From a virus (lineage: Duplodnaviria; Heunggongvirae; Uroviricota; Caudoviricetes): a stretch of DNA of 23,574 bases. Numbering within the stretch: position 1 is the first letter of the stretch; each line of letters begins with the position of its first letter. Made by a program: the position numbers and the translations under genes. The DNA is taken from IMG/VR virus record IMGVR_UViG_3300029843_000030; one strand, 5' to 3'. Under the pieces are notes generated by a model, which saw nothing but the letters and a program-made list of their open reading frames with translations, made no database searches and was not told the origin of the DNA. Positions 2,852 through 11,017 of this stretch are shown here, piece after piece.

Positions 2852-3076
2852 TCAACACACTGGCTGTAATGCAGCGGATACCATGCGGCATTTAGCGGCA
2901 TTCATCGTACACTCCACGGTTAGCTCTTCATTCGTGGCATTCACCTGAAAGGTCCGGGAGTGTAATTGCGTACATTTACCACTGAACGAACCTTCAACAA
3001 GAACACGACCACGCTGCAAAATACGGAACGGAATTGTTCCCTGAAAAGGTTCTACGGTTACCCGTAATTTCTTCAT
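2852..3076 (-). CDS. Small protein of unknown function (74 aa), paralog of the ORF at 10793-11017
   Basis: ATG overlaps the Rz stop (ATGA) and has a GGAGG Shine-Dalgarno. Shares the N-terminal pattern MKKLxVTxxPFxxxxxFRxxQxxxVLVExxFxGK with the 74-aa ORF at 10793-11017. Confidence 0.55.
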
Positions 3077-3558
3077 GTATCCTCCGGATAATAAAAAGCC
3101 AGCTTAGTGCACTGAGTGCGGATATATTCCTGCGCCCCTTCCAGCTGCTTCTGCATTGTCATCAACCGTTCTCTGAGGATGAAATAATCCCGTTCAGCGG
3201 TGTCTGCCAGTCGGGGGCCGGTTGCATTATCCACGCTGGAGGTGCCGGTGGCTTCACGCACGGTACCGGGGCAGGTGGCGTTGACCCGCAGGCGCTTACG
3301 ACCAGCGGCAACATCAGCGCGCAGAGTTTCAATTTCAGCTCTCGCATCGGCTAATTCCTTCGTGTATCTGGCATCAAGCGCAGCGACATCTCGCTGGCGC
3401 TGCTGCATGTCAGTAATAGTGGCATTCGCCAGTTTCAGCTCACTGACTTTTTTATCGCGCTGCGCTTTGTAGGTGATGGCGTTATCGCGGTAATGATTCA
3501 GCCCCAGACTAAGCACACCACAGACCACCAGCAGAATAACGGTAAACGCGGAAAGCAT
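3073..3558 (-). CDS. Rz: Rz inner-membrane spanin subunit
   Basis: From the internal ATG (MLSAF...): N-terminal TM helix then [16 protein letters not shown]...[30 protein letters not shown]...[24 protein letters not shown], matching lambda Rz as remembered. The track ORF extends upstream to 3666. Confidence 0.85.
3162..3347 (-). CDS. Rz1: Rz1 outer-membrane lipoprotein spanin, embedded in Rz in the +1 frame
   Basis: [61 protein letters not shown]: lipobox (VVSAC), proline-rich core and [18 protein letters not shown] motif as in lambda Rz1. AAGGAA Shine-Dalgarno. Confidence 0.85.
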
Positions 3559-3795
3559 TCGGTTTATGCTCACCCCACCAGCCCTGCCGAAGTCAACGCC
3601 ATCCAGGTTATGGAAAGAAAAAGAGCAACCAGCATTAGTGAAAATGAAATACCGACGATTACACAAAGGCCCTTCGCCAGCATTATGAGTTTGTCTGACA
3701 TCTTTACCTCTTAATAGCAGTAATTAACCGGGCAACCACCCATAAAAACGGAATCAGCCAGACCAGCAAAAATTTCCAGTCCATTTTTATCATCT

Positions 3796-4491
3796 TCATG
3801 CTGCGGTAGCTCTCCATGCAGCAAGCAGACCAGCAATCCACTGAACACCTTTTGGGGTGAATTTAACCTGCGTAAAAGCATGACCATTGCCCGCCTCGCC
3901 CGTTTTCACGCTAAACCGCCCCGCATCCAGGTGATGCGAGTAAGGCGTCATTTTTCCAGCGAGGCGATACATTATTCCGTTCTCCAACAAAAACAGCCGG
4001 AAATCGGTTTCTTTGATACCGAGTAACTTAGCAACTTCCCGGAATCCCATCAGACCAGATGCTTCAACATAGTTATCAACAAATTCAGCCTTCGGCGCTG
4101 CTATTGCCAGTTGATTTTCCAGCACTGCTTTCTGTTCTGCCAGTTTTGCCGCAAATCGCAACGCCTCAGGTAAAGTCTGGGGGATCTGAATACCATGCAT
4201 TGCTTTGAGTCTTGCCAGCACAGAACGACGAACGGCCTTTGACTCTCTCATGCCAACGAGCATCATCTGGTCAAAATCCAGATCATAGTATGCCGTTCTT
4301 GTCTGGTTATTGTTTAACCGGAATTTTTTTCCGGTTCCATCAAGCTCTAGCTCATCCTCAATTTTTGCAAGAAACTTACGCGGTTCATGAGGGACTTCTC
4401 CGGCTTCTGCCCGGGCTGGATTAATAATGTTATTCAGAAAATCCAGACTACTCATGGATATTTCACGATCGACAGAAATCATCTCTTTCAT
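3796..4491 (-). CDS. Phage antirepressor-like protein (ORF6N-type N-terminal region plus KilA-C-type C-terminal region)
   Basis: 231 aa with AAGGAA Shine-Dalgarno. C-terminal FVDNYVEASGLMGFREVAKLLGIKETDFRLFLLENGIMYR resembles the KilA-C / Ant domain. Sits between the endolysin and Rz, as remembered for the ant gene of 933W-like Stx phages. Confidence 0.7.
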   Translation of the reverse strand: MKEMISVDREISMSSLDFLNNIINPARAEAGEVPHEPRKFLAKIEDELELDGTGKKFRLNNNQTRTAYYDLDFDQMMLVGMRESKAVRRSVLARLKAMHGIQIPQTLPEALRFAAKLAEQKAVLENQLAIAAPKAEFVDNYVEASGLMGFREVAKLLGIKETDFRLFLLENGIMYRLAGKMTPYSHHLDAGRFSVKTGEAGNGHAFTQVKFTPKGVQWIAGLLAAWRATAA

Positions 4492-4764
4492 GGTTGATTC
4501 CTTTTAGTGATGAACCCTGCGCACAGGAATAACCAGCCCAAAGAGGGTTAACCAGACCACTGCCGGTTATCCACCAGGGCTCATCCTGAAAGGTTCTTTG
4601 GTTTATTTACGCTTGTGCGAAGCGCAGAAATGACAGAGGCACCATTACAGTGCCTCTGCGTGAAACAATCTTCCTGACTTTATTCACTTACATTTTGCCA
4701 GTTTGCAGGATTTCGTGTTATCCGTCCGCGTTGGTCAACGTCGTTTTTCAGCAAAATATTCTGC

Positions 4765-5298
4765 TTATCTGTCGATTCCCCAGCACGCCAGCGCACTCTC
4801 CTGGTCGCGACGGGATACCTGACCGTAACAGTTGTTTGAGCGAATACGGCAGTCTCTGCCACCGTCCTTAATCCACCAGCGAATCGCCTCACACGCCCCC
4901 CTGCGATCGCCTGCATTAATTCGTTTATAAAACGTCGACGGGAAACACTTACCGGGACCAATGTTGTACGGACAGAATGACGCGATCCCCGCTTTCTGGG
5001 GTTCGGTCAGTGGCACTCTGATGTTTTTCTCCACCCACGCCAGCGCCTTATCACGCTCAATGGCGTTAACCCGGTCGCATTTTCCCTTCGACAGCTTCAT
5101 GCCAGGAATTACAGGCTTACCATCCACCCGGGTGGCTCCACGGCAGATGGTCCAGATCCCCGCACCATCACGGTATGCCGTGGTGTGGTTACCTTCCTTT
5201 TCATCCAGAAACTGGTCGAGAATGTCAGGCGCAGGCGCACCAGCGGCAATCAGCGCCAGAACGGCAGCCGACAGGCCGTATTTGATTTTGGTGTTCAT
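4765..5298 (-). CDS. R: SAR (signal-anchor-release) endolysin, T4-lysozyme fold
   Basis: N-terminal weakly hydrophobic SAR-like segment (LSAAVLALIAAGAPA) followed by an E...D...T catalytic spacing (EKEGNHTTAYRDGAGIWTICRGAT), typical of phage 21 / P1-type SAR endolysins. Confidence 0.85.
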   Translation of the reverse strand: MNTKIKYGLSAAVLALIAAGAPAPDILDQFLDEKEGNHTTAYRDGAGIWTICRGATRVDGKPVIPGMKLSKGKCDRVNAIERDKALAWVEKNIRVPLTEPQKAGIASFCPYNIGPGKCFPSTFYKRINAGDRRGACEAIRWWIKDGGRDCRIRSNNCYGQVSRRDQESALACWGIDR

Positions 5299-5340
5299 GG
5301 ATATTTATCAGGATTTATCGGCAACAGATAACGAGCCAGC

Positions 5341-9749: not shown

Positions 9750-9902
9750 CTAACAGTCCGGCGTTTTCTTTTTCAGCAACGGGAAAGCAACAACCACCAC
9801 ACCCGCCACCAGCACACCGTCAGCCAGCACTGACATTATCCGGCTGCTGAAGTCCACCATCACCACCAGAAACAGCAGGAGCGCAACCACAGCCAGACGC
9901 AT
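9750..9902 (-). CDS. Possible small hydrophobic membrane peptide (50 aa, MRLAVVALLLFLVVMVDFSSRIMSVLADGVLVAGVVVVAFPLLKKKTPDC)
   Basis: Hand-found ORF below the track cut-off. Starts 9 nt downstream of the TerB-like gene stop; two hydrophobic segments. Confidence 0.35.
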   Translation of the reverse strand: MRLAVVALLLFLVVMVDFSSRIMSVLADGVLVAGVVVVAFPLLKKKTPDC

Positions 9903-9910
9903 TTTTACCG

Positions 9911-10342
9911 TCACAGATGATTCTCCAGACGAAGGCCCAGAACACCGGCAATCTCTTCCAGCACCTTGCGCTCTTCCGGCTCTATTTCGCCGTCTGCTTC
10001 GGCAATGGCCACCGCCACATCAAGCACATCTTCCGCTTCATGCGTATCGTGTTTCACATCCTCGATCTCCCGTAACGCCGCACGACGACCAATTTTAAAG
10101 TTCGTATCCAGCTGACCGATAATGGTTGCGCTAATCGCATTAATTTCTGACGTAAACGCGGACAAGGTGGGCTGGTTACGTAATACCTGTTCGATCTTCG
10201 CTTTCTCGGAAGCCTCACATTCACCATCGGCATAAGCCACCAGGTATGCGGCGTTAATCACCGCCTGGGCCAGATCGCGTTTTTCGAACTTTTTAATTTC
10301 CGCTGCCGCTCTACGGGTTTTCTTTTTGAAGATTCCAAACAT
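9911..10342 (-). CDS. TerB-like (tellurite-resistance TerB family) protein, 143 aa from internal ATG
   Basis: Two copies of the TerB-type ADG-x-E motif in helical context (AAYLVAYADGECEASEKAKIEQVL and VAVAIAEADGEIEPEERKVLEEIAGVLGL). AAGGAA Shine-Dalgarno before MFGIFKKK. Track ORF extends to 10414. Confidence 0.65.
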   Translation of the reverse strand: MFGIFKKKTRRAAAEIKKFEKRDLAQAVINAAYLVAYADGECEASEKAKIEQVLRNQPTLSAFTSEINAISATIIGQLDTNFKIGRRAALREIEDVKHDTHEAEDVLDVAVAIAEADGEIEPEERKVLEEIAGVLGLRLENHL

Positions 10343-10509
10343 CGTGACGTTCCTTTGGGTGGGTGAGCCAACGCCCGGGAGCGATCTGCCTACAGAGAAA
10401 GTCACACTGACCACTCCGTAAGCTCACCCCCGAAAGGCTCTGTGGTTGATATGCGCCGGGCGTGGCGCGGATACAAAAAAGGCCGCCAATAGCGACCTCA
10501 GTTACGGGA

Positions 10510-10740
10510 TTATTCTGGGGTTAAACGACTGTTACTCCCCCAGACAAAATCATCACTTCCTGTTCGATGCAAGCCATAGTGAACCTCGTACTTATCCCCC
10601 ATCTTTCTTGCTTCCGTTTCTGCGTCTTCCTCTGTCGCAAAAACCCCAACAAGATGCCAGGGCGAGCTTCTTACCACAGCCCAACCTTTAACCCATCCTT
10701 TGTTGTCCTTATCTTCCATTAACACTTCAGAAACAAACAT
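10510..10740 (-). CDS. Small protein of unknown function (76 aa, Trp-rich, acidic)
   Basis: Strong AAGGAGA Shine-Dalgarno with 5-6 nt spacer before ATG. MFVSEVLMEDKDNKGWVKGWAVVRSSPWHLVGVFATEEDAETEARKMGDKYEVHYG... Confidence 0.55.
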   Translation of the reverse strand: MFVSEVLMEDKDNKGWVKGWAVVRSSPWHLVGVFATEEDAETEARKMGDKYEVHYGLHRTGSDDFVWGSNSRLTPE

Positions 10741-10792
10741 ATTTATCTCCTTGTGGGTACCCAGAGATATTTTATGATTGCTCCCGGTCAGA

Positions 10793-11017
10793 TCAATAAA
10801 GTGGCTTCAATTTTGCCTTAATGATCAAATCAGGGTGATTGACGGAATCGTACACCACCTCAATATTTTCATCCGTGGCGTCGATAAGATATTCTTTTAC
10901 ATAAGGACCTGTTGATTTTCCATGAAATACATCTTCAACAAGTACACTCTCCCCCTGAACAACACGAAAACTAACTTCTGTTTCGAACGGACCAATCGTC
11001 ACCATCAGTTTTTTCAC
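10793..11017 (-). CDS. Small protein of unknown function (74 aa), paralog of 2852-3076
   Basis: AGGAGG Shine-Dalgarno 4 nt before a GTG start. MKKLMVTIGPFETEVSFRVVQGESVLVEDVFHGKSTGPYVKEYLIDATDENIEVVYDSV... Confidence 0.55.
   Translation of the reverse strand: MKKLMVTIGPFETEVSFRVVQGESVLVEDVFHGKSTGPYVKEYLIDATDENIEVVYDSVNHPDLIIKAKLKPLY

Follow-up and report, generated by a model that had tools for sequence, protein, structure and literature searches.

Lambdoid phages carry accessory genes, or morons, in recurrent slots of the late operon: cargo sits after the spanin gene Rz, which is the position of bor in lambda, and in Shiga toxin (Stx) phages the toxin genes stxAB lie behind a tRNA cluster. 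Here we analysed a 23,574-nucleotide (nt) stretch of viral DNA (IMG/VR record IMGVR_UViG_3300029843_000030, hereafter the window) in which the same two slots are occupied by members of one uncharacterised family, phrog_2571, each 74 amino acids (aa) long. Copy A overlaps the Rz stop codon, while copy B opens a two-gene cassette that starts at the post-terminator junction used by stx2A. Neither protein resembles the known morons in sequence or fold. Unlike Bor, a lipoprotein, and StxB, which forms a secreted pentamer, A and B show no signal peptide on inspection. Transcription differs as well: bor is read from its own promoter on the opposite strand, while A and B run in the direction of the late operon and no promoter of theirs was detected.

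Other described systems share the setting as well. The interval after the lysis genes and before the packaging genes has been shown experimentally to be a hotspot of immunity and counter-immunity genes in lambdoid phages (PMC11364771), and in phi80 it holds the Tai defence gene together with a small late-operon antagonist, AtiEcA, a 76-aa protein that acts by binding its target (He et al. 2024, PMC11364771). The likeness to Tai/Ati lies in gene size and location; no homology was found (hhalign probability 0.1 for both the phrog_2571-family and the partner alignments against AtiEcA), and no Tai-like divergently transcribed gene stands beside A or B in the window, where B and its partner are co-directional. 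Elsewhere, two layouts may recall the Tai/Ati 'non-contiguous operon' by analogy: a divergent 131-aa gene just upstream of the pair in Citrobacter (L011-L014, 3456-3851, minus strand), and a putative lipoprotein gene just downstream of a solo member, on the opposite strand, in Yersinia (L008, 4343-4744, minus strand). The anti-defence sponge genes of the Acb2/Tad1 type occupy these accessory slots too, in some cases right next to the cassette (in Salmonella L004 and L006, and also in L071, L075 and Xenorhabdus), but Acb2 is a helical hairpin and the family studied here is predicted to be all-beta, there is no sequence similarity, and the neighbourhood is occasional rather than fixed. Generic beta-sandwich or jelly-roll binding modules (CBM6/35/36, a lambda gpJ domain and a PNGase F domain) also belong among the closest known systems.

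Our explanation has a structural part, namely that A and B are paralogues, that B belongs to an inserted cassette at the stx junction and that the two copies were brought together by mosaic exchange, which we regard as very probable. It also has a functional part, a binding mechanism related to phage conflict, and we put the probability of both holding jointly at roughly 0.4. The features on which the argument draws are the following, all on the minus strand of the window.

2852 to 3076, minus strand: copy A, a solo phrog_2571 member of 74 aa, basic, with four cysteines; its ATG overlaps the Rz stop codon
3073 to 3558, minus strand: Rz (i-spanin) lysis gene, PF03245 with E 6.9e-51; its stop codon is common to the start of A
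10470 to 10484, minus strand: downstream copy of the 15-nt direct repeat GGCCTTTTTTGTATC, where homology with cassette-less prophages resumes
10479 to 10499, minus strand: second terminator-like hairpin, marking the downstream cassette border; the partner stop codon lies 10 nt before it
10510 to 10740, minus strand: partner gene, 52 nt behind B; 76 aa, phrog_4280, preceded by an AGGAG ribosome-binding site of its own
10793 to 11017, minus strand: copy B, a phrog_2571 member of 74 aa, acidic, without cysteine, with a GTG start; first gene of the cassette
11065 to 11079, minus strand: upstream copy of GGCCTTTTTTGTATC, flanking the cassette
11076 to 11093, minus strand: upstream terminator-like hairpin, after the tRNA cluster, at the upstream cassette border
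11107 to 11356, minus strand: tRNA cluster (CAT anticodon; Arg-TCG; Arg-TCT), which marks the stx-type slot downstream of Q

The initial annotation had called two equal-length paralogues here, each with a strong Shine-Dalgarno sequence, one coupled to the Rz stop and the other first after the tRNAs, and all of this is borne out. The ATG of A follows GGAGG by 5 nt and overlaps the TGA stop of Rz as ATGA; the GTG of B follows AGGAGG by 4 nt, and B is the first coding sequence after three tRNA genes. The pairwise BLASTP alignment is ungapped and significant (26/74 identities, 35%; 57% positives; E 1e-16), and because it covers the full length of both proteins, the similarity extends well past the shared N-terminal motif. 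Profile searches place the two at identical positions of phrog_2571, 100-172, with residues 1-73 of A (E 2.7e-28) and residues 1-72 of B (E 1.9e-26). In a prophage of E. coli T309.Ta3 (L001) that is 99.9% identical across window positions 1-12061, RefSeq lists A and B as hypothetical proteins WP_000736383.1 and WP_000735807.1 and names Rz 'lysis protein'. A is under purifying selection, with a dN/dS (ratio of non-synonymous to synonymous substitution rates) of 0.33 at dS 0.43 between the window copy and a Stx2a-phage variant of 74% amino-acid identity. A and B are thus real protein-coding genes and true paralogues of one uncharacterised family.

What the initial annotation overlooked is that B is half of a conserved two-gene cassette. 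The 76-aa gene behind it matches phrog_4280 almost end to end (E 8.2e-40, residues 1-70 of 76, profile positions 1-70 of 71). In Salmonella, Citrobacter and Xenorhabdus a conserved gene of 67-71 aa lies 55-75 nt downstream of the family gene, and the partner in the window is 61-65% identical to these trailing genes, with 35 invariant positions. The association also holds when approached from the other side: retrieving IMG/VR loci by the partner alone gave 61, one of which is cut at a contig end, and in 57 of the 60 testable loci a phrog_2571 member lies about 60 nt upstream on the same strand. Xenorhabdus and Pseudocitrobacter genomes carry the pairing too. The two proteins co-diverge, as their distance matrices over 40 unique pairs show (Mantel r 0.70, reached by 0 of 2000 permutations), and the beta-sandwich protein diverges about 1.7 times faster than its partner. 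The usual form of the family is therefore a two-gene cassette, with a beta-sandwich gene followed 40-75 nt later by an alpha/beta partner of 67-76 aa. Depending on the phage, the paired cassette precedes or follows the lysis genes, and many viral contigs have one in the post-lysis, pre-terminase slot.

The partner can also be found without its companion: in Pseudomonas and Stutzerimonas prophages (L086-L094, L073 and L074), genes 47-58% identical to it have no phrog_2571 gene upstream. Since phrog_4280 extends to such Pseudomonas-type prophages, the partner is probably the older and more widespread half of the pair. In one of them (L089) it adjoins a gpK-like tail gene with Prok-JAB and NlpC/P60 domains. 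Searches of Pfam returned for the partner a sub-threshold DUF7336 match only (E 0.007-0.02), and PADLOC-DB 2.0 gave only chance-level Cas7c matches over a short stretch (E 0.002-0.02). A partner-like tblastn match in the early region of the window (17273-17359, E 0.02, within a 96-aa open reading frame (ORF) at 17195-17485, minus strand) is probably due to chance, and that ORF has sub-threshold Pfam matches only.

B and its partner form a complete insertion of about 600 bp (about 10470-11079), bounded by terminators, at the place where Stx phages carry stxAB. In a cassette-less prophage (L002), the tRNA-Arg gene is followed by the same hairpin and then directly by the region upstream of the TerB-family gene; in the window, the hairpin (11093-11076) is followed by B, the partner and a second hairpin (10499-10479), after which the L002 sequence resumes. 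The repeat GGCCTTTTTTGTATC occurs in the window only at 11065-11079 and 10470-10484, with 0 occurrences expected by chance, and the megablast matches of many A-bearing, cassette-less prophages stop at about position 10495. In a Stx2a phage, the same hairpin and the motif 'tatctgcg' precede stx2A, and the sequences diverge directly after; from this we conclude that one junction takes either the B cassette or stx2AB as its cargo. The same Stx2a phage has stx2AB directly behind the same tRNA trio and an A-type gene overlapping its Rz stop. Because it uses both slots alike, the slots had been described correctly, and across the family both the post-Rz and the post-tRNA slot are used by this cargo in different phages.

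The B cassette is an uncharacterised moron cassette, taking moron in the Hendrix/Juhala sense of an autonomous extra unit. It is inserted between conserved genes with clean borders, being absent from L002 and from most A-bearing prophages and flanked by the 15-nt repeat, and it has its own terminator, a hairpin followed by a T-run at 10499-10479 after the partner stop, identified by pattern match only. A promoter of its own was not found: a crude scan, which gives a weak negative, showed no promoter-like site upstream of A or B. Its sole promoter-like match (9/12) falls between B and the partner, and site counts were below the shuffled expectation. The GC content of the cassette is 42.4% against 48.8% for the window, a modest difference, and the segment is short.

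As for the proteins themselves, an AlphaFold2 model built from a 32-sequence alignment predicts, with confidence (pLDDT 91.5), an all-beta sandwich of six strands and one short helix, without a specific structural relative. The small beta-rich fold anticipated by the initial annotation is therefore what the model predicts, and the fold indicates no function. By inspection only, and not with a dedicated predictor, the N-termini of A and B (one reads MKKLMVTIGPF) have no hydrophobic stretch or h-region and no lipobox cysteine, and in the model residue 2 already lies within a beta-strand. These observations support the earlier claim that neither protein has a signal peptide, so that A and B are probably cytoplasmic, unlike Bor or StxB.

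The members of phrog_2571 are 72-82 aa long and confined to Enterobacterales, and alignments across genera keep this length together with a set of invariant or near-invariant residues. An exhaustive profile search gave 53 cluster representatives at E <= 0.001, and a word-indexed profile search found members in Salmonella, Citrobacter, Enterobacter, Cedecea, Xenorhabdus, Yersinia and Edwardsiella as well as in E. coli; environmental viral contigs carry the family too, and in all there are hundreds of cluster members on at least 1000 contigs. Three multi-repeat matches (P0075, P0081 and P0097) appeared in the exhaustive search, of which P0075 is a repetitive protein unlike the remaining family. 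The profile of phrog_2571 is based on a longer protein (280 aa, of the N15-like phage type), the shared domain being positions 100-172, and in an N15-like phage the domain lies inside a 198-aa protein encoded between the lysis genes and the terminase. Fusion proteins (P0056, P0060, P0065, P0066 and the 198-aa protein of phage YDC107_1) were considered as a functional clue and set aside, as their extra regions are all of unknown function. The solo member in Yersinia is located in the early region, where it adjoins ParDE and a kinase. PHROG lists both phrog_2571 and phrog_4280 under 'unknown function', and its entries are silent on the pairing.

What could such a pair do? The most likely time of expression is lytic growth, because no promoter-like site precedes A or B and both lie behind terminator-like hairpins; the two genes would then be part of the Q-dependent late transcript. 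The beta-sandwich protein may bind another protein, with the partner acting as a co-factor or modulator, and the likely target would be a host defence or a competing phage. This suggestion comes from the binding-type fold, the fast divergence next to a conserved partner, the mobility between slots and the neighbourhood, in which Acb2/Tad1-like genes occur at most 2 kb away in four independent contexts. A role in conflict would suit both the fast divergence and the slots, which also hold Acb2-like and Tai/Ati genes. We give somewhat less than even odds to the idea that the two genes encode an accessory pair that is expressed late, binds other proteins and serves in conflict between phage and host or between phages. 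It is tempting to speculate further, although this more specific version is doubtful, that phrog_2571 and phrog_4280 form an unrecognised two-protein system of Enterobacterales temperate phages, made late and neutralising a host defence or a competing phage by direct binding, with the beta-sandwich as the specificity subunit and the conserved partner as co-factor. In non-Stx lambdoid prophages of Shiga toxin-producing (STEC) and enteropathogenic (EPEC) E. coli, the cassette would then take the place of the toxin genes at the stx locus, and the Rz-coupled solo form, which 23% of E. coli genomes carry, would represent a streamlined variant.

Several observations weigh against a role in conflict. 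The functions proposed for A, B and the partner draw on context and predicted fold, and late-only expression draws on a simple promoter scan. All four proteins are named 'hypothetical' in every source checked, and a literature search on the accession numbers, the PHROG identifiers and DUF7336 returned no paper on them, while searches by genomic context led to the Tai/Ati study alone. A and B have no match in Pfam, NCBIfam or PADLOC-DB 2.0, and in a profile search of Protein Data Bank sequences no match had an E value under 0.49. Both families lack homology to AtiEcA, and the association with Acb2 is loose, since the contexts are few and the genes do not always adjoin each other. Known anti-defence genes tend to belong to the early genes. 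Finally, solo forms exist, both of the family (A-type genes, and Yersinia without the partner) and of the partner (Pseudomonas, without a family member), and because each protein also occurs alone, any complex between them need not be obligate.

Among the alternatives, an accessory role in lysis, in which the protein tunes the spanin, endolysin or holin step or the timing of lysis, survives best together with defence of the lysogen, though we consider each unlikely. A lysis function would account for the coupling to Rz and for the location among lysis genes: translation of A is coupled to that of Rz, the A-type copies in phage records invariably come after Rz, and most paired cassettes directly adjoin lysis genes on one side or the other. 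However, the proteins appear to be cytoplasmic, with no membrane or signal segment, while spanins act in the envelope, and most lambdoid lysis cassettes do without them (77% of E. coli genomes have no A). The early-region location of the Yersinia member and the tail gene next to the partner in a Pseudomonas prophage do not fit a lysis role either.

An equally unlikely alternative is that the pair is expressed by the lysogen as a prophage defence or superinfection exclusion system, with two components as in Tai or a toxin-antitoxin. The two-gene architecture, the moron-like insertion with its own terminator, the hotspot shared with Tai and other prophage defences, and the weak promoter-like site between B and the partner would all agree with it. 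Yet no convincing sigma-70 promoter was found upstream of A or B, both genes share the orientation of the late operon and lie behind terminators whose read-through requires Q, PADLOC gave no match, and the fact that either gene can occur alone speaks against toxin-antitoxin dependency. A type II toxin-antitoxin pair in particular is not supported: each gene is found singly in many genomes (A-type in 1244 E. coli genomes, the partner in Pseudomonas), and there are no Pfam matches.

It is improbable that the genes are cargo for lysogenic conversion or virulence which, like stx in this slot, acts on the animal host. The junction is identical to that of stx2AB and B occurs mainly in STEC and EPEC lineages (O145, O157, O103 and E110019), but neither a signal peptide nor a secretion signal is present, members also occur in Xenorhabdus, Cedecea, Citrobacter and environmental viral contigs, and the lineage bias may merely reflect where this type of prophage lives.

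The initial annotation had interpreted A and B as a duplication into two slots of one prophage and took this as a sign of selection for their function. The equal length, the ungapped alignment and the presence of both in one prophage speak for a recent, tandem-like duplication kept by selection for higher dosage, but the rest of the evidence makes it very improbable. The two proteins are only 35% identical, their synonymous sites are saturated, and they differ in charge and cysteine content (pI 9.5 and four cysteines in A, pI 5.0 and none in B). Their distributions differ as well. A-type DNA is found in 1244 of 5426 complete E. coli genomes (23%), in up to six places per genome, and B in only 97 (1.8%), where it is nearly invariant (>=99% identity in 92 of 97). 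Among deposited phage genomes, 26 records have an A-type copy (Stx1a, Stx2a and Stx2c phages, H-19B and others), after Rz wherever annotated, and no B-type copy was found there. The whole arrangement from A to B (window 2800-11100 at >=80% coverage) is present in only two of the 5426 E. coli genomes. Counting the window and the near-identical L001 as one, eight B-bearing prophages were inspected: they have several different Q and replication modules, yet all keep the order tRNAs, B, partner and TerB, and a family member after Rz is present in only two of them, the window/L001 and O145 RM9872 (L077), leaving six without a post-Rz copy. One B-bearing prophage, L079, has another tRNA trio (Asn, Thr and Gly) ahead of the same cassette.

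Moreover, some prophages carry an A-clade member with a partner gene of its own, and other prophages a B-type member with one. The post-lysis slot of E. coli PSS-15 holds an A-clade gene (identity 62% to A and 45% to B) with a partner 40 nt downstream, and in a rough neighbour-joining tree the A clade and B (with P0056) are sister lineages among the short forms. No partner or partner remnant was detected downstream of A by tblastn. From these sequences we infer that A descends from a paired cassette at the post-lysis slot that lost its partner and became fused to the Rz stop codon; On this view A comes from a cassette of the same type but no longer has a partner, and its translation is tied to that of Rz. 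The co-occurrence of A and B looks like mosaic assembly of two old lineages, which would have met in one prophage through modular recombination rather than local duplication. The weakest alternative, that A and B are non-functional ORFs, either chance frames or decaying remnants, could appeal to their small size and lack of annotation, but is hardly credible in view of the strong ribosome-binding sites, the dN/dS of A, the confident AlphaFold2 fold, and the length and residues conserved across genera in a family of this size.

The remainder of the late operon, on the minus strand, is of lambdoid type. From Q (12438-13259) it runs through a 239-aa ORF, the tRNAs, B, the 76-aa ORF, a TerB-family gene and a DUF3927 gene; then through a frameshifted nanS-p-type esterase, DUF1378 and DUF826 genes, the holin, a 185-aa ORF and the lysozyme; and finally through a KilAC antirepressor, a 43-aa ORF, Rz and A to the terminase. 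The 239-aa ORF (11479-12198, minus strand; phrog_1521, no Pfam match) lies between Q and the tRNAs, where related prophages have a DNA methyltransferase, and in the T309.Ta3 prophage it is truncated by IS903B. The tRNA at 11281-11356 (minus strand) is called Met (anticodon CAT) by ARAGORN, while RefSeq labels an identical gene tRNA-Ile, which is the ileZ-type tRNA known from the tRNA clusters of Stx phages. The esterase, a carbohydrate esterase with SASA/DUF6645 domains (6811-8772, minus strand), is split into ORFs at 6811-7248, 7232-7936 and 7789-8772; because RefSeq marks a near-identical copy as frameshifted, it is a pseudogene here, and it is intact in many relatives.

Nearer the lysis genes, the 185-aa ORF (5341-5898, minus strand; phrog_1085/36381/2091, unknown function) occupies the holin-lysozyme interval, where relatives have a YdfR-family gene. 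The PHROGs of this ORF are also matched by the C-terminus of P0056, a B-like fusion protein, which suggests that P0056 may be a deletion fusion formed in some prophage rather than a meaningful combination of domains. The KilAC-domain antirepressor (3796-4491, minus strand) and the 43-aa ORF (3570-3701, minus strand; phrog_4906) are inserted between the lysozyme gene and Rz and form a third accessory slot, inside the lysis cassette, which some relatives share (L099) and others lack (L002). A YlcI/YnfO-family gene (2037-2222, plus strand) separates A from the terminase genes and is oriented against both; most related prophages examined have a gene of this family in the same region and orientation.

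The junction behind Q and the tRNAs is the medically most important cargo site of E. coli prophages, since the Shiga toxin genes sit there, and its occupants in stx-negative relatives help to reconstruct the origin of Stx phages and the exchange of their cargo. In the sources searched we found no earlier description of the pairing, the sharp insertion borders or the shared stx junction. The cassette is small, sharply bounded, conserved across genera and uncharacterised, and about one in four sequenced E. coli carries the solo form. Should the cassette have no role in conflict, it would be one more ordinary moron of unknown function. If instead it acts in counter-defence or in competition between phages, a common two-protein system would be added to the catalogue, and the solo form would illustrate clearly how a cassette can shrink to a single gene that is built into the lysis operon.

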